A DNA stretch of 64,000 nucleotides from Candidatus Omnitrophota bacterium (GTDB lineage: Bacteria > Omnitrophota > Gorgyraeia > Tantalellales > Tantalellaceae). The stretch lies in contig JAQUQS010000006.1 in the NCBI GenBank assembly GCA_028715965.1, positions 50,163-114,162 of the forward strand. The letters are read 5' to 3'. This document shows positions 1,573 through 34,869 of this stretch, piece after piece (within the stretch, counting starts at the first letter, position 1; each line of letters starts with the position of its first letter). The position numbers and the translations under genes were made by a program. The notes under the pieces were generated by a model. It was not told where the DNA came from. It worked only from the letters and a program-made list of their open reading frames with translations, and ran no database searches.

Positions 1573-2040
1573 ATGGCCGCCAGTTTGAACAAGGTATTTC
1601 TTATGGGGAACCTTACCAGGGACCCCGAGATAAGGTATATACCGAGCGGTACGGCTGTAGCGAATTTCACCGTAGCGGTGAACCGTCCATACAAGGACAC
1701 GACCGGGGAGAAGAAGGACGAAGTATCCTTCATAAGGGTCGTGGTGTGGGGGAAAATGGCGGAGATATGCGGGGAATACCTGACGAAAGGTAGGCCGGTC
1801 CTGGTAGAGGGCCGGTTGAAGTCCCGGACATGGGAAGCCCAGGACGGGCAAAAAAGGAGTTCCATGGACGTTGTGGCCACGAGTGTACAGTTCCTGGGAG
1901 GCAAGGGAGACAGGACGCCTTCTGCCGGGGGGAAGAAAGATGTTGGGGCAGGGGCTTCTCGGGACGACGACCAGGGTTACGGAGAAGTGGAATCTATCGA
2001 TGTTGATCAAGGCGCGATGGATAATGAAGTGCCGTTTTAA
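1573..2040 (+). CDS. ssb: single-stranded DNA-binding protein
   Basis: OB-fold SSB motifs (NKVFLMGNLTRDPEIRY..G..VANFTVAVNR) are followed by a Gly/Asp-rich linker and an acidic C-terminal tail ending DNEVPF. Confidence 0.92.
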   Translation: MAASLNKVFLMGNLTRDPEIRYIPSGTAVANFTVAVNRPYKDTTGEKKDEVSFIRVVVWGKMAEICGEYLTKGRPVLVEGRLKSRTWEAQDGQKRSSMDVVATSVQFLGGKGDRTPSAGGKKDVGAGASRDDDQGYGEVESIDVDQGAMDNEVPF

Positions 2041-24394: not shown

Positions 24395-24466
24395 ATAGAA
24401 AAAAGGCTTTAAAAATAAGGGACTTGTAGTATAATAATTTTCCGGAATTCGCACGACAAAAACACC

Positions 24467-24584
24467 GCTGGGATGTAGCCGCATACCAGAGATCCCGCGG
24501 ATCACGGTATACGGCGCGTGTAATTGGTAACAGGACCCCTGTACCGTGATCACGAAGTGATCTCTGGTACAGGGCAGCTGACTC
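24467..24584 (+). pseudogene. degenerate 5' fragment of tRNA-Gln interrupted by two ~40-nt mutually complementary insertions
   Basis: Three segments are identical to the downstream tRNA-Gln: aacaccgctgggatgtag, tgtaattggtaaca and cagctgactc. They are separated by insertions at 24479-24518 and 24533-24574. The first insertion contains accagagatc and gatcacggta, and the second contains their reverse complements taccgtgatc and gatctctggt. There is no anticodon 3' half, T-arm or acceptor 3' strand. Confidence 0.6.
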
Positions 24585-24662: not shown

Positions 24663-24737
24663 TGGGATGTAGTGTAATTGGTAACACAGCTGACTCTGGA
24701 TCAGCCGTTCCTGGTTCGAGTCCAGGCATCCCAGCCA
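24663..24737 (+). tRNA. tRNA-Gln (anticodon CTG), CCA encoded
   Basis: Manual fold gives acceptor TGGGATG/CATCCCA (U1:A72), discriminator G73, D-stem GTGT/ACAC, anticodon stem GCTGA/TCAGC with loop CTCTGGA (U33, anticodon CUG, A37), T-arm CCTGG-TTCGAGT-CCAGG and an encoded CCA. Confidence 0.85.
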
Positions 24738-24744
24738 TATATAA

Positions 24745-24770
24745 AAAAACCCTCTTTTGAGGGTTTTTTT
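24745..24770 (+). terminator. rho-independent terminator after tRNA-Gln
   Basis: aaaccctc tttt gagggttt is followed by a T7 run. Confidence 0.7.
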
Positions 24771-25084
24771 ATATGCCCGCGGAAGCGGGGGACGAGGGGT
24801 ATAAGATAAGAAATACCCCGAGTGACTGAGGACGCAATGTCCGAAGAAATGCCGCGAAGTCCCCTGAGCGGCCTGACCAGATAGCTTTTAACCCCTAACT
24901 GTTTACAGAATAAGTAGATGGGAGTACAATAACTGGAGTTGGGATAATAAGAAGTTATGATGTGTTAATGCCGTCCTACAAATGTATTGACAGCTTTACT
25001 GTTATGCTAACAGGAGAATGATATTATAGATTTTTCTGATTGGGGATAAAATGGTTATGAAGAGAAGAATGGTAGGAGGACGAA

Positions 25085-26065
25085 ATGGCTAAGCCTAGGG
25101 TTTTTATAAGTTCAACTTATTATGACATGAGGAATGTTAGGGCGGATTTGGAGAGATTTATTTTAGAACAAGGATATGAGCCCGTTTTGTTCGAGAGAGG
25201 GCATATTGCTTATGGTACGGAAGAGCGGGTGGAAGAAGATTGTTATAGGGAAATTAATACTTGCGACATATTAATAAATATCATTGGTGGTAAAATTGGG
25301 ACGCAGTCAAGAAGCACACAATATTCTATTTCACAAAATGAGCTAAAAGAAGCAATTAAGTTGGGAAAGCAGATATATATATTTGTAGAACGGCCAGTTC
25401 TAGCCGAATATAGTACCTTTATTGCAAATAAGGAAGTAGCGGGTTTCAAGGCAACTGCCGTGAATGATTTAAAGGTATATTCTTTTCTTGAAGAAATATT
25501 CGCACTTTCTGGAAAAAATCCAGTGCAGGGTTTTGAGGTTTCAGAAAACATTACCACTTTTCTCAGGGAACAGTGGGCAGGACTTTTTCAGGTATTACTG
25601 CAGGAACGTGCTAGGCAAAAGGAAGTAAATTTACTAGGCAGAATTGAAACGACTGCAGATACATTAGATAGGTTAGTAAAGTTTTTAACTGAAGAACGAA
25701 GTCAGGGCGACCAGGCCATTAAGGATATTCTTCTAAGCAATCACCCATTGTTCAAGTCTTTAAAGAAGCAACTTAACATTCCATATCGTATCTTTTTTGA
25801 AACACGCGATGAAATGGAAGCTTTGCTTGTAGCCAGAAAAACTAATCTAATTGAAGAGAAAGAGTGGGATGATGCAGAATATATAGAGTATTTGTGTGAA
25901 TGGTGGAAGAATACCACAAAAATTCTAAAGATAAAAGAAGATCTTTTTGACGAAGAAGGAAGGCTAAAAATATTTAAACCAGATGAGTGGGATGAAAGCG
26001 CCGTTATTTTGGAAGAAATAGAAAAAAATAATACTAGTGGAGAAGATTTAGAAGTTCCTTTTTAG
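25085..26065 (+). CDS. hypothetical protein with an N-terminal TIR-like (DUF4062-like) domain, an alpha-helical C-terminal domain, and a C-terminal SSB-tail-like EDLEVPF
   Basis: AGGAGG lies 7 nt upstream of the ATG. The N-terminus RVFISSTYYDMRNVRADLERFI resembles the VFISST..DM..R..L signature of DUF4062/TIR-like domains, and a conserved Glu sits in IYIFVERP. The C-terminal 170 aa are Glu/Lys-rich and helical, and the last residues are EVPF as in the host SSB. Confidence 0.6.
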   Translation: MAKPRVFISSTYYDMRNVRADLERFILEQGYEPVLFERGHIAYGTEERVEEDCYREINTCDILINIIGGKIGTQSRSTQYSISQNELKEAIKLGKQIYIFVERPVLAEYSTFIANKEVAGFKATAVNDLKVYSFLEEIFALSGKNPVQGFEVSENITTFLREQWAGLFQVLLQERARQKEVNLLGRIETTADTLDRLVKFLTEERSQGDQAIKDILLSNHPLFKSLKKQLNIPYRIFFETRDEMEALLVARKTNLIEEKEWDDAEYIEYLCEWWKNTTKILKIKEDLFDEEGRLKIFKPDEWDESAVILEEIEKNNTSGEDLEVPF

Positions 26066-26117: not shown

Positions 26118-26128
26118 TCCCAGCCATA
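26118..26128 (+). repeat. direct repeat of tRNA-Gln 3' end (att-like right boundary of islet)
   Basis: This is an exact 11-nt match, TCCCAGCCATA, to tRNA-Gln positions 24727-24737. Confidence 0.55.
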
Positions 26129-26132
26129 AAAA

Positions 26133-26158
26133 ATACCCGCCTTTGGCGGGTTTTTTTA
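26133..26158 (+). terminator. rho-independent terminator downstream of islet CDS
   Basis: cccgcc tttg gcggg is followed by a T7 run. Confidence 0.7.
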
Positions 26159-26452
26159 TGGTCAAAGGCCTGTGGCCTTTGTCTGTTCCCGGCTCGGGTT
26201 TCCGGCTGGGAACAAGTTCCCGCCGCTAAACCTCACCGGTTCCAGCTGTGATGCCTGGGATCCTGCGCATCTCGTCAGCTCGGTGCTGGTACGATCAGGG
26301 GACAACTTAAGCTATGGTTGGGGACAGTTTAAGCGGGAGTTTGTACCCGGTACAAGCTTTTGGCGTAGCCAGTACTTATTTACTGAAAAACTCCGCTTCG
26401 TATGATAAAATATCACATCAACAATTGTTATAACAAGTTAGAGGAGAGGGAC

Positions 26453-28373: not shown

Positions 28374-31300
28374 ATGCATATGAAAAGAACATATCCTTTC
28401 TATCTGGTGTTTATCCTTGCGCTACTCTTTACCAGTACCTTTTCGGAAGCCTACACAGAGGCCTACTCAGGACAGGAACTTGGACCTCGTGACGATATTA
28501 TGACAAAAAAACGCGTTAACGTGCTTTTAGAGGAAAGGGAGACCCTTCTCGAGGAACAGAAAGGTCTTTTGGAATACATGGGGATAATGGAAGAAGAGAT
28601 AGCAAGGCTCAAGAAAGAGGTTTCGGAATCCAGGAAGGGTCTTATGTCGGAAGTGGAAAAGACCAAAAAAGAACTTAGGGAACGGCTAGGGCAGCTGGAA
28701 GAAGAGAATGATACACTTAGGCGGCAACGGCAGATACTTGCCCGTAAATTAGTCGACCTTAAGGATGTAACGAAAACCTGGGACGGAGACACTGGTCCTT
28801 CAGGGGTGGATGATGCCGGGCTAAAAGGGCTAAAGAACGAGAACGATGAACTTTTGAAGGAGAATAGTGATCTTCGCGGGCAGATAGAGAAAGAAAGAAA
28901 AAAGAACGACAGGATCGAAGAAGATCTTAAGTCCGAAAAAGAAAAGGTCTCAAGGATCCAGAGATCACTCGAGAACGGGGTTAGCCAGGCTGCCGCGATC
29001 ATTGATGAAAAAGACGCGGAAATAAGGGAGCTTAGGAAAGAAAGCACGATCCTGTCGGTCAGGATAAGGGAAGCGGAGAAAGAGAACCTGGACCTCAGGA
29101 ACTCTTTAGGGGACTCCAAGACGGGGGCCGGTGTGGAAGATACTGGCAGTAGGGAGGATATCGCGCCCGGTCTTGAGGAGAAGATAAAAGAGCTTCAAAC
29201 GGTAATAAAAAGCCTGGAAAGGAAAAACCTTTCTTTACGGGAAGAGAATTCCAGGCTGGGAAAGACAGCTGTAAAGACCGGAACGCCCCAGGGAGGGCAG
29301 GACGAAGGGGTCGAAGGATACGTGTCCGATATAAGGGAAAAGAACGCCATCATATCGGAGTTACGTGGGGAAAAAGAAATGCTGGGAAAAAGGTTATCTA
29401 TCGCGATCAACGCCAAGAAAGCCTTAGAGGAAGAGCTTGCCAAGAGCCGGGTATCGACCGAAGCGGATGTTGACGCGGCGCGTCAGGAGCTCAAGAGCTC
29501 ATATGACGATATGGTTGAGGGGCTTAAGAAAGAGAACAGTGGCCTTCGGTCCGAGTTGTCGTCATCTGCCGGCAGGGAAAAGCGTCTTGTCGATGAGCTG
29601 GAAAAGACAAGGACGGGGATGAAGGAGCTTCTGGCGGACAACCAGAGAAAAGACCTGGCGCTGAAGAAGGTCATGGATCACCGCGAAGACGTCGAGAAAA
29701 AGCACAAGGACCTCGAGCGAAAGAATATCATGCTTGAGACCGAGCTGAAGAACCTCAACGCGCTCCAGGCCACAGAAAAAGAAAAGGCCCGGGAAGAGAT
29801 AAGCGCTGAGTACGAGGGCAGGATCAAAAGCCTGGCGCGAGAAAAGAACAAGCTGATGTCAGGGCTTGCCGAGCTGGAGAAAGAGCTCTTGGACATGAAG
29901 GATCGAGAGAAAGACGTGGAAAATGACAGGGTAAAAGAGCGGGATGAAAGAAAAGAGATGATCCGTGTGTTGACCAAGAAATACGCCAAGCGGGAAAGGG
30001 CTATCCTGGATGAGCGTGACGCCATGAAGGAAAAGATGGATGCCGCGAAGAAAGAGCTTGCCGATATACGGAAAGAAAAAGACGCGATACTGTTAGACAA
30101 AGAAGCGGCTGAAAAGGACAGGCAGGTCGCGGTGGAAGAAGCCCAGCTTATACGCCAGCAGGTTTCCCGGCTAAAGGATGATCTTTTAGAAAAAGAGGAG
30201 ATCGACAAGAAAAAGGCTAATGATTTCTATGTGCGAAAAGCGGCACTTCTTGAGAACGAGAACAAGGTCCTCAGGGATAACGTGAAAGAGATCAAAGAGA
30301 ACATGGCAAAAAAAGATGAAAGGACCAAAGAACTGCTTTCCGGCGCGGATGACATGAAGGCAGAGCTTGAAAAGGTTTCGCGGGAAAAAAGAGCCCTTTT
30401 GGAAGAGATAGATACGCTTAAGGCTTCAATGGAAAAGATAATGTCCGAAAAGGACGGTACCTATGCTACGGTCGAAAGCCTGCAAGGGAAGATACTGGCG
30501 CTTGAAAAAGAGCGTGACGATATGGGGAAAGAACTCGAGGGCTTGAGAGCAAGGAACAGCGTGGATATAGACGCAAAGCTCAGGGAAGCTGAGGGGGTGA
30601 TCTCCGAAAAGCAGGAAAGCATAAATACGCTTCTCGCCGACATCAAAGAGAAACAGGAAGAGGCGGAGAGGCTTTCGGGGGAAAAAGACGCGCTGGTAGA
30701 GAAAATGAAGGAAACATTGAAGGAGAAATACCTGTTGGAGAACAAGGCCAGGGACATCCTGAAGGAAAAATATGTCCTGGAAGAGGAGCTCGCGGCAGTA
30801 AGGGCCGGCGCGGAAAAGACCGCTACGAATGTGGAGGAATTTTCCGAGAAGGCCGGTGAGCTTGGGCAGCAGAACGCCGTTCTATCACGGGAAGTCAGGG
30901 AGCTTGAGGGTAAATTGGACGATATCTCCCGGGAGTTGGAGATGACTGAACAGGAGAACGAGGGGCTCAATGCCGACATTAAGGAATACCAGGCGCAGAT
31001 AAACGGGTTCAGCGCGGAGAGAGAGAGATTGAACGCCCAGATAAGGGCGATCCGGGGGCAAGCGGTCACCCCGGCAGGCGGAGCCAACGAGTTCGAGTCG
31101 TATATGTCTAAAATGGATACGGTCGTAGCGGAACGTGTAGAGGCGGAGAGGAAACTTGCTCAAGAAGCCTTTGATCGTAAGATAGAGGCGTACAAGAAAG
31201 AGGTTGGAGCATTGAGGGCGCAGCTTGACGCCAAAGGAAAAGATAGCGATACACGTGTGGATGTAAAAGGGGATTACGAGAGGCAGATGAAGGAAAAAGA

Positions 31301-31802
31301 CGGCAAGATCAAGGATTACGAAGATGCCTTGAGCAAGGAATTGGCCACCGTACGGGTCCTACAACGCAAGCTGAATGATACCAGGAAAAAACTCGCTGAT
31401 CTCGGATCGTCATTTGAGGCTACGATAACGGATAAGCAGAACATAATAGACAGGACGGGGAAAGACCTTGCCGCCGCGCGCAGCCAGGAAAAGGACATAA
31501 AAGAAAAATACCAGAAGGTCATGAGGGATCTTTCGAGCGCTTTACAGGGTAAGTCCAGTCTGGAGAAAAAACTCAAAGCCTACGGATCGGAAATAGACAG
31601 GATGAAAAAGAAAATAAGATCAAAGGGAACATCGGACAGCCGGGAGCCTTCCGGAAAACTTGAACGTGAAGTGCGGGCGTTGCGGGACGAGAACTCCGAA
31701 CTGAAACAACGGCTTGATATATTGCAGAAAGAGATAGAAGAGCTAAGGATGATGAACGCTAGGTCCCCCGTGCCGGTACATGTGGCCGGTGCCTCGAATT
31801 AA
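28374..31802 (+). CDS. giant secreted coiled-coil protein (1142 aa), function unknown
   Basis: The signal peptide is MKRTYPFYLVFILALLFTSTFSEA. More than 1000 aa follow of heptad-pattern Glu/Lys/Leu-rich sequence with no globular domain, and the C-terminus is Pro/Val-rich. Confidence 0.7.
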   Translation: MHMKRTYPFYLVFILALLFTSTFSEAYTEAYSGQELGPRDDIMTKKRVNVLLEERETLLEEQKGLLEYMGIMEEEIARLKKEVSESRKGLMSEVEKTKKELRERLGQLEEENDTLRRQRQILARKLVDLKDVTKTWDGDTGPSGVDDAGLKGLKNENDELLKENSDLRGQIEKERKKNDRIEEDLKSEKEKVSRIQRSLENGVSQAAAIIDEKDAEIRELRKESTILSVRIREAEKENLDLRNSLGDSKTGAGVEDTGSREDIAPGLEEKIKELQTVIKSLERKNLSLREENSRLGKTAVKTGTPQGGQDEGVEGYVSDIREKNAIISELRGEKEMLGKRLSIAINAKKALEEELAKSRVSTEADVDAARQELKSSYDDMVEGLKKENSGLRSELSSSAGREKRLVDELEKTRTGMKELLADNQRKDLALKKVMDHREDVEKKHKDLERKNIMLETELKNLNALQATEKEKAREEISAEYEGRIKSLAREKNKLMSGLAELEKELLDMKDREKDVENDRVKERDERKEMIRVLTKKYAKRERAILDERDAMKEKMDAAKKELADIRKEKDAILLDKEAAEKDRQVAVEEAQLIRQQVSRLKDDLLEKEEIDKKKANDFYVRKAALLENENKVLRDNVKEIKENMAKKDERTKELLSGADDMKAELEKVSREKRALLEEIDTLKASMEKIMSEKDGTYATVESLQGKILALEKERDDMGKELEGLRARNSVDIDAKLREAEGVISEKQESINTLLADIKEKQEEAERLSGEKDALVEKMKETLKEKYLLENKARDILKEKYVLEEELAAVRAGAEKTATNVEEFSEKAGELGQQNAVLSREVRELEGKLDDISRELEMTEQENEGLNADIKEYQAQINGFSAERERLNAQIRAIRGQAVTPAGGANEFESYMSKMDTVVAERVEAERKLAQEAFDRKIEAYKKEVGALRAQLDAKGKDSDTRVDVKGDYERQMKEKDGKIKDYEDALSKELATVRVLQRKLNDTRKKLADLGSSFEATITDKQNIIDRTGKDLAAARSQEKDIKEKYQKVMRDLSSALQGKSSLEKKLKAYGSEIDRMKKKIRSKGTSDSREPSGKLEREVRALRDENSELKQRLDILQKEIEELRMMNARSPVPVHVAGASN

Positions 31803-31830: not shown

Positions 31831-34800
31831 ATGATGGTATGTAAGAGAATGGTACGTTCGAGTTTGCCGATCGCTTTCCTTGTGTTATCACAGGCGGTGC
31901 GGCCCATATATGCTGATGGAGAGGCAGCCACGCCTATCACGATCACGGCGAAAAGTAATAACGCCGTGATGTTCGGTAATAGCGGGAGGGATGAAAGCGG
32001 TATCGCCGATGGGCAGACAAGCGCTATCAGGCAGAAAGAGACGGAGATCGAGATATTAAAGGCGCAGCTTGAAGAAGCCAACGAAAGGCTGGCCACGAAA
32101 GAAAGATCTACCGGAGACAGCACGTCCAGATTGCGTAACCTGGTGGCGCGAATAGATGCCCTGGAAAAAGCTTCCAGGGAAAAGATCGCGTCATACGAGA
32201 AAGAGATAGCGGAGCTTAAAGCCGGGTCGGTCGAGAAGAACATATACCAGGGTACGGCCGGGGAGAAGGACCGGATAGAAATAAACAAACTCAAAACGGA
32301 GCTGGCCGGCGCGAAAGACGCTTTATCCCGTAAAATAGAAGAAGTCGCGGCCATGGACCGCGATCTCTCCCGCGTTAAGGAAGAAAAAAATAGCGCGCAA
32401 GCTGAAGCGGCATCTTTCAGGAACGCGCTATCGGAAAAGAGCCGTGAGTTAAGTTCCGTGCTGGAGGCGCATGCATCCCTGAAAAAAGAGCTGGATACCG
32501 CCATGGCGGGGATGAACGGGATCAAGGGGACAGAGGAAGATGGTGTTAAGGACGAAGAGGCTTTGTCCGTGCTGGAAAGCAAGGTACGGGACGGGGAAGA
32601 GACCATATCGTCCTTGAAAGAAGAGATAGTTTCCAGTAATATCAGGGCGGAAAAATATCTCGGGGATATCGAAGCGGCGAAAAAAGAGATAGAACGGTAT
32701 AAGGAGGACATCAGCAGGTTGTTGGCGGAGAACGCAAAATACCAGGAGAGGATAGACGCGTTGGACAAGGAAAGAACGGAAAAAGATATCGCGTCCGATG
32801 AGGCTATCTTGAAGGTCGAAGCGGCGGAACGGGAAGCGTCAGCGTACAAGGAAGATCTGTCCGCGGCCCAGGCGGAGGTGCGGAGCAATAAGGAGAGGAT
32901 AGACGCCCTCAAAAATGAAATAGCGGCCGGCGTGGCGAACATTAAGAAAAAAGAGGATATTATTAATGGGTTGACCGCTGAGATCGATTCCGAAAGAAAA
33001 AAGGCCCTTACTTACGCCGGACAAACGAAGGAGTATGAGGCAAAAATAAAGCGTATGGAGGAAGACCTGGCTCGCATGATCGACGCATCGGGAAAAAAGG
33101 ACGAGGAAATGACGTCACTCAGGGCTGAGATCGATGACTTGAGGAAGATCGAGGAACAAAAAGAGACCACGCGTGATAGTTTGAGCGGCGAGCTGGAGAT
33201 AAAGAAAAAGGAATTAGCTAATTTCGTAGAGGGGTTCGAGGCTTATAAAGAGAAGTATGCCGCGGAGGTCATCGATAGAGAAAAAGAGATAGAAAACCTC
33301 AGGAATGATCTTGCTGCCGGCAAGTCCAAGTTGGAAGACGCGAGGAAGGAGCTTGACAAGGAGAGAGGCGCCCTAAGGAACAAGGACGCGCGCATAAAGG
33401 AATTGGAGGGAAAGTTATCCTCCATGGAAGCCTTGGCCGAGGCAAAGTCCGCGGAAATGGAAAAGGGCCTGTCAGAACACCTGGAGACGATAAAGGTCAG
33501 GAACGAGGAAATAGGTAAGCTTAACGAAAAGATCGGGTCTTTTCAGGAGCAATTCAAGACCTTTTCCGACGCCAAGGATTCTGAAGTGGCTTTAAAAGAC
33601 AGCGAGATAGAGAGGCTAACGTCGGAAGTGAGGGGCCTGAAGGATGTCGCGATATCTAAGGATAAAGAGATCAACGCCCTCAAAAAGAACATGTCCGGGC
33701 TTGAGGGCAGGATAAAAGAAAATTCCATGAATTATGCTAAAGAACTGGACGCTTTAAAGGTGTCGATCGAAACAATAAGCAAAGAGAAAGAGGATATGGC
33801 CGCGGAGCTCAAGTCCAAGGCCGACGAGGTCAAGACTCTCACGGAAAGCCAGGAGGAAATGAACGTTTCTCTCGAGGCATACAAAAAAGACGTGACTTCC
33901 GGGGTGGCGGAAATAAGCGAGCTAAAGGCGCGTTTGGGGCGAACGGATGACGAGATGAAAACGCATCTTGCGGAATATGAGAAAGAGATCGCGGCGCTTG
34001 AGGCAGAGCTTGAGGAAAAGAACGCTAAAATGATCGAACTGGATTCGAGCCTGAGTTCGTATAAAGAGCAGTTCATAAGTTTTTCAGAAGAAAAAGACAA
34101 GGAGATAGCCGCCCAGAAAGACAAGATAACGTCACTTGAGAAGGAGAACGCGGTATTCTCAAAGGAGCGCATGGACCTCAAAGACAAAGAGTCGCGCCAG
34201 GCCGGCAGGATAAATGAGCTCGAGCGGGAAACGGGCCGGATAAAAGATAAGGCCGCGAAAATAATCTCAAAGTATAAGGAGGAAGTAGAAACGCTTGAGG
34301 CCAGATCGTTGTCGGTCCAGTCCCAACTTACGCAGGCACAACAGGAAGCGGAAGCGCTAAGGGATGAAAAGGCGAGAAAAGAACTTGAAAAAGACGAAAG
34401 GACCGCGCAATTCCAGTATATGTCGGCCAGTCTCAAGCGTGCTATGCGCAAGACCATAGACGCGGGTGAAGTGGCAGTTTCGGCCTCGGATAAGGGGGTT
34501 AAAGTATCGGTCCTTAGTGATGTCCTGTTCGGGCCGGGAAGTGCCGATATCAGTTCCGGGGGGAAAAGTGTCTTATCGGATATTGGTAACGCCCTCCAGA
34601 AAAGTATGTCCGGAAATAAGATCGTTATCGAGGGGCATACGGATAACGTGCCTATACGCAGGTCCGGATGGAAGTCGAATTGGGACCTGTCCAGCCAGAG
34701 AGCGATATCCGTATTGCATTATTTTACTGATGACCTTGGTATGACCCCGGATGATATGCGGGTGACCGGATATGGACAATATCGCCCGATAGCGGATAAT

Positions 34801-34869
34801 TCGACCGAGGAAGGGCGCAACCGGAACCGAAGGGTCGAGATACTGGTGCTCCCGGTGGCGGAAAACTAA
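31831..34869 (+). CDS. giant secreted coiled-coil protein (1012 aa) with C-terminal OmpA/MotB-type peptidoglycan-binding domain
   Basis: A signal peptide ending at the IYA-DGE cleavage region is followed by about 850 aa of coiled-coil. The C-terminal domain (VLFGPGSADISSGGKSVLSDIGNAL..IVIEGHTDNVPI..SNWDLSSQRAISVLHYF..TGYGQYRPIADNSTEEGRNRNRRVEILV) matches OmpA_C. Confidence 0.8.
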   Translation: MMVCKRMVRSSLPIAFLVLSQAVRPIYADGEAATPITITAKSNNAVMFGNSGRDESGIADGQTSAIRQKETEIEILKAQLEEANERLATKERSTGDSTSRLRNLVARIDALEKASREKIASYEKEIAELKAGSVEKNIYQGTAGEKDRIEINKLKTELAGAKDALSRKIEEVAAMDRDLSRVKEEKNSAQAEAASFRNALSEKSRELSSVLEAHASLKKELDTAMAGMNGIKGTEEDGVKDEEALSVLESKVRDGEETISSLKEEIVSSNIRAEKYLGDIEAAKKEIERYKEDISRLLAENAKYQERIDALDKERTEKDIASDEAILKVEAAEREASAYKEDLSAAQAEVRSNKERIDALKNEIAAGVANIKKKEDIINGLTAEIDSERKKALTYAGQTKEYEAKIKRMEEDLARMIDASGKKDEEMTSLRAEIDDLRKIEEQKETTRDSLSGELEIKKKELANFVEGFEAYKEKYAAEVIDREKEIENLRNDLAAGKSKLEDARKELDKERGALRNKDARIKELEGKLSSMEALAEAKSAEMEKGLSEHLETIKVRNEEIGKLNEKIGSFQEQFKTFSDAKDSEVALKDSEIERLTSEVRGLKDVAISKDKEINALKKNMSGLEGRIKENSMNYAKELDALKVSIETISKEKEDMAAELKSKADEVKTLTESQEEMNVSLEAYKKDVTSGVAEISELKARLGRTDDEMKTHLAEYEKEIAALEAELEEKNAKMIELDSSLSSYKEQFISFSEEKDKEIAAQKDKITSLEKENAVFSKERMDLKDKESRQAGRINELERETGRIKDKAAKIISKYKEEVETLEARSLSVQSQLTQAQQEAEALRDEKARKELEKDERTAQFQYMSASLKRAMRKTIDAGEVAVSASDKGVKVSVLSDVLFGPGSADISSGGKSVLSDIGNALQKSMSGNKIVIEGHTDNVPIRRSGWKSNWDLSSQRAISVLHYFTDDLGMTPDDMRVTGYGQYRPIADNSTEEGRNRNRRVEILVLPVAEN

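Follow-up and report, generated by a model that had tools for sequence, protein, structure and literature searches.

Why does a predicted TIR-like enzyme of the DUF4062 family end in an acidic Pro-Phe tip resembling that of its host's SSB (single-stranded DNA-binding protein)? The question is raised by a 64,000-nt stretch of DNA, hereafter the window, from Candidatus Omnitrophota bacterium GCA_028715965.1 (contig JAQUQS010000006.1, positions 50,163-114,162 of the forward strand), in which a short islet carries a single gene for a 326-aa protein, the islet protein. The product of this gene terminates in ...NNTSGEDLEVPF, followed by a TAG stop, and its longer C-terminal stretch, ...EKNNTSGEDLEVPF, closes with GEDLEVPF. 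An earlier note on this DNA had paired the ending EDLEVPF of the islet protein with the ending GAMDNEVPF of the window's ssb gene, and both endings were confirmed in the sequence. A six-frame scan of the window identified acidic Pro-Phe endings among its long open reading frames (ORFs) only in ssb and the islet gene, which are also the only two real genes of the window that end in PF before the stop codon.

This match is at the peptide level, not at the DNA level. The tip is spelled GAT AAT GAA GTG CCG TTT in ssb and GAT TTA GAA GTT CCT TTT in the islet gene; because synonymous positions differ (GTG CCG versus GTT CCT), the islet tail is no recent copy of ssb DNA, and recent capture of the ssb 3' end was rejected as its origin. 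The body of the islet protein is likewise not that of an SSB: it has no SSB or OB match in Pfam, and its fold combines a TIR-like domain, a helix and an alpha/beta auxiliary (AUX) domain, with no OB-fold. Its end nonetheless displays the features of the SSB C-terminus (SSB-Ct), that is, an acidic run and an [I/L/V/P]-P-F-COOH terminus preceded by a flexible linker. Motifs that bind the beta-clamp are of the QL[SD]LF type. We considered such a motif for the tail and rejected it, as the Gln/Leu pattern is missing and the acidic Pro-Phe signature stands in its place.

The acidic Pro-Phe tail in the islet protein family

The earlier note had held a chance match to be unlikely and had left its proposal to be judged by a survey of homologues for a conserved acidic-PF C-terminus. 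We ran that survey, and the proposal survived it. The PF end closes 104 of the 120 closest homologues (50-70% identity), mostly as DDDIPF, DDDLPF or DDVPF, which bears out the note's view of chance, and it is similarly found in 70 of the 78 intact genes from species-representative genomes. We then took the best 150 cluster representatives at 50% identity, 120 of which bear the AUX domain. Seventy-seven of these AUX-bearing representatives carry the acidic-PF end, three are near-variants, eight end in DPF[AG][DE][DE] and 32 are tail-less or end otherwise, some of the latter being probably truncated ORFs. Among the representatives that share only the core and the stalk helix with the islet protein, none of 26 has a PF end. 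The SSB-like tail is specific to the AUX-bearing lineage. Relatives are spread over many phyla (452 among 185,579 species-representative genomes), and an exhaustive profile search returned 4,999 matches at E values up to 1e-3.

Within the tail, P325 and F326 are at least 90% conserved, and the preceding linker is free in both length and sequence, linker plus tail spanning 6-18 residues across the family and being rich in P/E/S/T. A variable linker beside a conserved tip argues for selection on the tip itself. The family logo of the tip reads D/E at positions -6 to -4, I/V/L at -3, and then P and F; among 100 PF-ending sequences (from the 106 sequences of set A1), position -3 is most often I (57), followed by V (16) and L (15).

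Such endings are rare outside the family. The 157 fetched loci contain 9,409 six-frame ORFs that are stop-terminated and at least 80 aa long; 97 of these end in [DE][DE]xPF, and all except about six of the 97 are family members, the other ORFs (~9,300) forming the background. The non-family cases encoded by phages are one SSB, one DUF3127 SSB-like protein (on two contigs) and one small unannotated ORF; the remaining exceptions are a family gene that is split and a single TIR-like protein of another kind. In Streptococcus mutans UA159, only three proteins end in LPF, two of them being SSBs (PMC5143411). Conservation in homologues and rarity among background ORFs together indicate that the tail is not a product of chance.

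Two further kinds of ending were observed. A subset of the family terminates in DPF[A/G][D/E][D/E], for example EYDPFADE, with the Pro-Phe pair internal and three residues after it; its members are P0141, P0178, P0181, P0199, P0201, P0232, P0258, P0269 and the genes at L024 10001-10972 (WOR-3) and L043 10001-10966 (Chthonomonas). Core-only DUF4062 proteins of other lineages on the IMG/VR contigs L135, L137 and L141 end in ...YLCIPF, ...KFGFPF and ...EITGLPF, respectively. These hydrophobic PF ends lack the acidic run and may be a weaker version of the theme, or chance.

The tip is also found on another kind of protein. In Flavobacterium sp. PS2 (NZ_CP176426.1, locus L065), a DUF4062 family gene is followed, within one defence island, by a Thoeris ThsB/ThsA pair and then by the gene for P0271 (L065 12501-13280), a 259-aa TIR/NDT-like protein (NDT, nucleoside deoxyribosyltransferase) that ends in EVDDLPF. 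Of the 1,648 homologues of P0271, the best 120 include 109 with a PF end, mostly as [D/E/G]LPF. This family is separate from DUF4062, and a second putative effector, TIR-like but unrelated, thus bears the SSB-like tip.

Tail residues and the SSB tails of host groups

We compared the tails of the family with taxon-level SSB tails taken from the literature and with a survey of Omnitrophota SSBs. Documented SSB tips read DIPF in the gammaproteobacteria Escherichia coli, Photobacterium, Psychromonas and Psychrobacter, DLPF in the Bacteroidota Flavobacterium and Psychroflexus, and DVPF in Desulfotalea (PMC3991886, Table 1). They read DDDLPF in the Bacillota Staphylococcus and Bacillus (PMC5531588, PMC3464605) and DDEPPF in mycobacteria (PMC7847540, PMC3575820). 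On the side of the family, LPF closes 16 of the 18 members from Bacteroidota and both members (2/2) from Paenibacillus. The latter sit at separate positions in the family tree, where one of them (L072, EISEDDLPF) adjoins Acidobacteriota members ending in EISDDDIPF. Pseudomonadota members outside Acinetobacter carry IPF in 26 of 27 cases. Association of the -3 residue with host group yielded a Fisher p of 3e-10, uncorrected for phylogeny. In addition, an EDVPF-ending cluster includes a Desulfuromonadales member, and viral contigs with an LPF-tailed family gene also encode SSB-like proteins ending in DDLPF.

As to the host of the islet protein, 118 of the 120 SSBs closest to that of the window end in PF, and all those with a named source are from Omnitrophota. 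Their -3 residue (n=120) is I in 49, V in 35, A in 13, T in 12 and P in nine, and most have E at -4 (EIPF in 35, EVPF in 22). The islet protein combines E at -4 with V at -3, residues found at these positions in only 18% and 16% of the family, respectively, and its closest homologue ends in EEEEVPF. Judging from these sequence comparisons, the -3 and -4 residues of the tail appear to track the SSB tail of the host group, albeit imperfectly. As an observation on the SSBs themselves, Omnitrophota tips depart from the textbook DDDIPF, and a Gly often precedes the tip.

The islet protein and its locus

According to three preprints of 2026, DUF4062, since renamed NIR, is a TIR-like NADase domain that drives abortive-infection phage defence (10.64898/2026.05.01.722283, 10.64898/2026.06.25.731849, 10.64898/2026.09.04.749371). 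Swarozyc of Klebsiella pneumoniae (KpSwz; PDB 10wc/11cq/11cv) becomes active when it assembles side by side on the phage portal (10.64898/2026.05.01.722283). Evangelion (Eva01) is escaped through mutations in phage recombination proteins and prefers DNA with single-stranded (ssDNA) overhangs (10.64898/2026.06.25.731849), and the NIR systems Avs2-NIR, Vulcan and Vesta deplete NAD+ upon infection (10.64898/2026.09.04.749371). Residues 5-90 of the islet protein match PF13271 (DUF4062) at E 5.6e-17, with a score of 62.1 bits where the gathering cut-off is 24.7, and P0001, a protein identical to it, carries the annotation 'DUF4062 domain-containing protein [Candidatus Omnitrophica bacterium]'. An AlphaFold2 (AF2) model built on 106 homologues reached a confidence (pLDDT) of 85, and Foldseek searches with its N-terminal domain retrieved NDT, DNPH1, plant TIR and SARM1 at probabilities of 0.99-1.00. 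The designation 'TIR-like' given by the earlier note thus holds for the Pfam family, the NDT/TIR fold and the presence of the catalytic Glu alike.

Residue E86, the predicted catalytic glutamate, is invariant across 106 family sequences. It aligns opposite the Ala at chain position 84 of the KpSwz structure. As the deposited protein is the E97A mutant, this Ala is its residue 97 (10.64898/2026.05.01.722283); the same numbering offset also fits D71 at chain position 58. This position is the equivalent of KpSwz E97, Eva01 E87 and Vulcan E98. The N-terminal aromatic motif is present as well (F7, 99% conserved in the family). In the stalk, E162 is conserved, Q163 invariant and W164 at least 90% conserved, the counterpart of the 'Q/W/E' motif described for DUF4062 (10.64898/2026.06.25.731849). 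A structure search with the AUX domain yielded no match among solved structures, and residues 313-326, that is, linker and tip, are disordered in the model. The whole protein is acidic, with an isoelectric point (pI) of 4.8. By homology to the tested DUF4062 proteins of other lineages, it is predicted to be an NADase acting in abortive-infection defence. PADLOC (2023) gave no match for it, because its library predates the DUF4062 systems. Features of the locus are compiled in Table 1.

Table 1. Features of the islet locus and of the host ssb gene, in window coordinates
Feature	Position	Strand	Basis
Islet gene, DUF4062/NIR TIR-like protein, 326 aa	25085..26065 (including stop)	+	ORF list; Pfam PF13271
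TIR-like/nucleoside-deoxyribosyltransferase-like catalytic domain, residues 1-150	25085..25534	+	AF2 beta-alpha repeats; Foldseek
Codon of E86, predicted catalytic glutamate	25340..25342	+	Invariance; KpSwz alignment
Long stalk helix, residues 153-207, with E162-Q163-W164 motif	25541..25705	+	DSSP on model (H153-207)
AUX domain, residues 209-312, compact alpha+beta fold, lineage-specific, net charge -9	25709..26020	+	AF2 model
Variable low-confidence linker, residues 313-320	26021..26044	+	pLDDT 58-69; family alignment
SSB-C-terminus-like tip D-L-E-V-P-F, residues 321-326	26045..26062	+	Sequence; family logo
Host ssb gene, C-terminus ...DQGAMDNEVPF then TAA	1573..2040	+	Pfam SSB, E 4.9e-40
SSB tip D-N-E-V-P-F of host ssb	2020..2037	+	Sequence
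tRNA-Gln(CTG), islet insertion target	24663..24737	+	ARAGORN; Rfam tRNA, 66.3 bits
Left direct-repeat copy, tRNA 3' end TCCCAGCCATA and terminator hairpin	24729..24772	+	Repeat search; pairwise alignment
Right direct-repeat copy, end of ~1.39-kb islet	26118..26159	+	Repeat search; pairwise alignment
Promoter-like site TTTACA-17-TACAAT upstream of islet gene	24902..24930	+	Consensus scan, 10/12 matches; consensus match only
Intrinsic-terminator-like hairpin and T-run 3' of islet gene, within right repeat	26135..26159	+	Sequence scan; repeat search

The islet protein and KpSwz are alike in being encoded by single genes and in their length (326 aa), N-terminal DUF4062 domain, catalytic Glu, helical stalk and C-terminal auxiliary domain. 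Occurrence in defence islands and spread by horizontal gene transfer are also shared by KpSwz and the islet protein family, and the same output, NAD+ hydrolysis leading to abortive infection, is expected of the islet protein. However, only the catalytic core of the two proteins is detectably related (profile E 1.6e-5 over residues 4-103). KpSwz senses the portal through an HTH (helix-turn-helix)/winged AUX, to which the islet AUX has no detectable similarity, and membership in Swarozyc was accordingly rejected at the sequence level.

With Evangelion, the islet protein shares the single-gene DUF4062 core, a diversified AUX and the F7, E86 and E162-Q163-W164 motifs. Evangelion (clades Eva01-04) is plasmid-associated, has a short AUX region and belongs to other lineages. 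The best matches of the islet protein in the plasmid database PLSDB are only 27-33% identical and cover just core and stalk, with no full-length relative in that database. One of these plasmid homologues, from enterococci, has 392 aa and an unrelated C-terminus (...KQKLGIS) with no PF tail. Membership in Evangelion was also rejected at the sequence level, by comparison with the PLSDB plasmid relatives. Avs2-NIR, Vulcan and Vesta have in common with the islet protein the effector domain and the logic of the catalytic Glu, and differ in their sensors: STAND/terminase sensing, HEAT repeats that sense lambdap79 or a two-gene phosphatase system. The Swarozyc, Evangelion and Vulcan/Vesta papers make no mention of SSB or of an acidic-PF tail.

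In the window, the islet gene is flanked by tRNA-Gln(CTG) and glnS (26402..) and is located downstream of gltX. GC content across the islet is 36-38%, against ~50% in the flanks, to which it returns past position 26200, and an imperfect direct repeat flanks the islet, with 1387-1389 nt between its left and right copies; the term islet used in the earlier note is hence well founded. As the repeat consists of the tRNA 3' end and the terminator, the islet is a ~1.39-kb insertion at the 3' end of tRNA-Gln. The islet has a promoter-like site and a terminator (26135-26151) of its own. It contains no integrase gene, and an Rfam scan of the islet gave no match apart from the tRNA. On the best reading, the islet gene is a stand-alone, horizontally acquired gene. 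About 200 nt upstream of the real tRNA gene, we also noticed a partial second copy of the tRNA-Gln 5' half (24458-24584), in which the blocks identical to the tRNA (24458-24478, 24518-24532 and 24575-24584) are parted by two mutually complementary inserts of ~40 nt; neither ARAGORN nor Rfam calls this copy.

Neighbourhoods of the family elsewhere revealed no recurrent neighbour or partner gene, either among 121 neighbouring ORFs of 35 genomes or in the loci examined individually. The family gene is solitary, in surroundings that include type I and type IV restriction systems, a PARIS-like AriA and PDC candidates, and locus L007 presents it as a clean insertion between bshB-like and glycosyltransferase genes. 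Searches of INPHARED cultured phages and of E. coli genomes found no family member, and IMG/VR viral contigs hold about 30 full-length ones, which probably sit in prophages. Three further arrangements were recorded. In unrelated genomes (L002/L025 8644-9891, L003-L005 and L020 5510-9945), the family gene follows directly downstream of ribonucleotide reductase genes, a neighbourhood that looks like an insertion hotspot and not a partner. At L009 1612-8606, and also at L010 and L011, it lies inside an element whose other genes code for RuvC, an HTH protein, a DnaG-like primase and a serine recombinase, which suggests carriage by a small mobile element or satellite. In Dechloromonas sp. ARDL1 (L038 10001-10741 and 13055-13582), the gene is split into an N-terminal part of 244 residues and, ~2.3 kb apart, a C-terminal end reading ...EYEEDEIPF, presumably by an insertion. 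Elsewhere in the window, and unrelated to the SSB-like tail, two adjacent ORFs of more than 1,000 aa (28374-31802 and 31831-34869) have an extremely high content of Glu, Lys and Leu and resemble coiled coils, the second having, by eye, an OmpA-like C-terminal end.

Possible roles of the tail

What, then, might a predicted NADase gain from an SSB-like tail? The earlier note had the protein dock into SSB-tail-binding pockets and serve as a sensor or a decoy; taken as a whole, that interpretation is partly supported, being plausible and unproven. The demonstration in 2026 that DUF4062 is a defence NADase allows it to be made more specific, in terms of where an abortive-infection enzyme is placed and how it is activated. 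The reading we prefer, to which we would give a little less than an even chance, is that the islet gene is a single-gene DUF4062 defence NADase whose SSB-tail mimic docks in SSB-Ct pockets and so places the enzyme at SSB-coated ssDNA hubs. The tip would be a true molecular mimic of the host SSB tail, of the form (D/E)3-[I/L/V]-P-F-COOH. It would be read by the SSB-Ct pockets of genome-maintenance proteins (ExoI, RecQ, PriA, chi and RecO-type partners), by phage proteins of replication and recombination that work through the SSB hub, or by both; the earlier note had proposed RecQ, ExoI, PriA-type proteins or SSB itself, and the tracking of host groups lends indirect support to such binding. Docking would hold an enzyme that is otherwise inactive at ssDNA hubs coated with SSB. 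Once a phage produces replication or recombination intermediates in abundance, many protomers would be gathered there and, together with AUX, rearranged into an active oligomer, which would hydrolyse NAD+ and shut down the infected cell. Activation by clustering of this kind would fit both the assembly of KpSwz on a multivalent scaffold and the link of Evangelion to replication and recombination, the same cellular arena that an SSB-tail mimic would target.

SSB-Ct and the islet tail have in common the acidic positions -6 to -4, the choice of an aliphatic residue or Pro at -3, the invariant Pro-Phe, a flexible low-complexity linker and a taxon-specific -3 position; the body of the islet protein is instead a predicted enzyme that has no OB fold. 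Defence at the same stage of infection is on record. Retron-Eco8, Hna, AbpAB and DARNA recognise phage SSB or ssDNA with dedicated domains (10.64898/2026.02.22.705581, 10.1101/2025.11.11.687766). They watch SSB-coated phage ssDNA and mount an abortive response, but for none of them has a copy of the host's SSB tail been reported, whereas here the immune protein would present that tail. Full-text literature searches combining SSB-Ct with defence terms retrieved nothing relevant on SSB-Ct-like tails of defence proteins. In phage T7, gp2.5 (PMC10359462) and gp4 share acidic C-terminal tails that end in Phe and dock on the same partner. The gp4 tail is thus a precedent for a non-SSB protein bearing the acidic, Phe-terminated tail of its cognate SSB, although this pair is part of a phage replisome, is no immune effector and lacks the Pro-Phe signature.

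Several observations weigh against docking at SSB hubs as the function of the tail. The AUX domains of other DUF4062 proteins sense the portal, lambdap79 or the A1 nuclease pathway, so AUX may be the sensor here too and the tail secondary. About a quarter of the AUX-bearing representatives (32/120) have no such tail, which therefore is not essential for all members. The linker of SSB measures ~30-110 residues (PMC3991886), far more than the 6-18 residues of linker plus tail in the islet family. The correspondence with host SSBs also has its exceptions: Acinetobacter members end in LPF, although the documented SSBs of Moraxellaceae (Psychrobacter) end in DIPF (PMC3991886), and a member from a Thermoleophilia metagenome-assembled genome ends in IPF, as against the mycobacterial DDEPPF (PMC3575820, PMC7847540). 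Finally, the Bacteroidota members form essentially one clade, so that part, perhaps much, of the host association reflects shared ancestry.

A variant that we regard as possible, if on the unlikely side, makes the tail an integrated bait. A host-matched SSB tail would be displayed to phage proteins that dock on the SSB hub; by binding the bait in place of the hub, or in addition to it, these would nucleate assembly of the NADase and trigger abortive infection, a device then used by at least two unrelated TIR-like families. If true, bacteria would here have their own version of the 'integrated decoy' logic known from plant NLRs.

An autoinhibitory tail is an unlikely explanation, in which the acidic tip folds onto its own protein or a neighbouring protomer (the TIR active site, the BB-loop region or AUX) and keeps the NADase off until a trigger displaces it. 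The resemblance to SSB-Ct would then reflect similar physical chemistry, not shared partners. Intramolecular regulation by acidic C-terminal tails is established for SSB, T4 gp32 and T7 gp2.5 (PMC10359462), loss of the tail from about a quarter of the AUX-bearing lineages is as would be expected of a regulatory add-on, and pLDDT is slightly higher at the extreme tip than in the linker. A protein as acidic as this one, with its AUX domain at net charge -9, however, offers no obvious basic surface on which the tip could dock. Moreover, binding in an internal pocket would not explain why the -3 and -4 residues track the SSB tail of the host group. The same tip also appears on an unrelated TIR-like family with a different body.

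It is distinctly less probable that the protein acts as a decoy or competitor, titrating host or phage SSB-Ct-binding proteins so as to block phage replication or shield the SSB hub, with the NADase activity being secondary. Conservation of the tail and its tracking of the host count equally for such a role, and the stalk probably dimerises or oligomerises, like that of KpSwz (10.64898/2026.05.01.722283), which would give several tails per particle, like the SSB tetramer. Yet the catalytic Glu and the DUF4062 motifs are invariant in the family, arguing that enzymatic activity is the selected output, and a defence protein present at low level is unlikely to titrate abundant SSB partners stoichiometrically.

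We consider it very improbable that the C-terminal [I/L/V]PF is a degron, that is, a ClpXP-type protease tag that holds a toxic NADase at low level and is overridden during infection, when the protein would be stabilised. In S. mutans UA159, the C-terminal LPF of SsbA and SsbB is enough to bring about ClpXP-dependent degradation (PMC5143411), in mycobacteria the tail of SSB binds ClpX and activates it (PMC7847540), and a protease adaptor reading the host SSB tail would account for host tracking as well. Nevertheless, LPF-dependent degradation is strain-specific: E. coli and other streptococci lack it, and in vitro it was not reproduced (PMC5143411). The SSB of mycobacteria escapes degradation (PMC7847540), and SSB is stable and abundant in most bacteria. 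A functionless tail, whether chance resemblance or neutral relic, has in its favour solely the shortness of the motif and is effectively refuted by the homologue survey, given a tip conserved in hundreds of homologues beside a hypervariable linker, its absence from relatives with other C-terminal domains (0/26) and the scarcity of such ends outside the family (about six of ~9,300 background six-frame ORFs).

It was only in 2026 that DUF4062/NIR NADases became known as immune effectors. Their effector domain and the single-gene logic of defence are thus not new; what is new is a DUF4062 lineage that bears a host-tracking SSB-Ct mimic at its sensor end. Apart from this lineage, the tail motif is the hallmark of SSB, on which the maintenance of bacterial genomes centres as its hub. 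Should the tail function in the manner of an SSB tail, it would provide a simple route for wiring an immune enzyme to replication and recombination intermediates, and this would be the first case found in the literature searched of an immune protein that presents the SSB tail, not one that recognises SSB. Its occurrence on two TIR-like families suggests that the tip is a reusable module, which could flag further defence genes by sequence.

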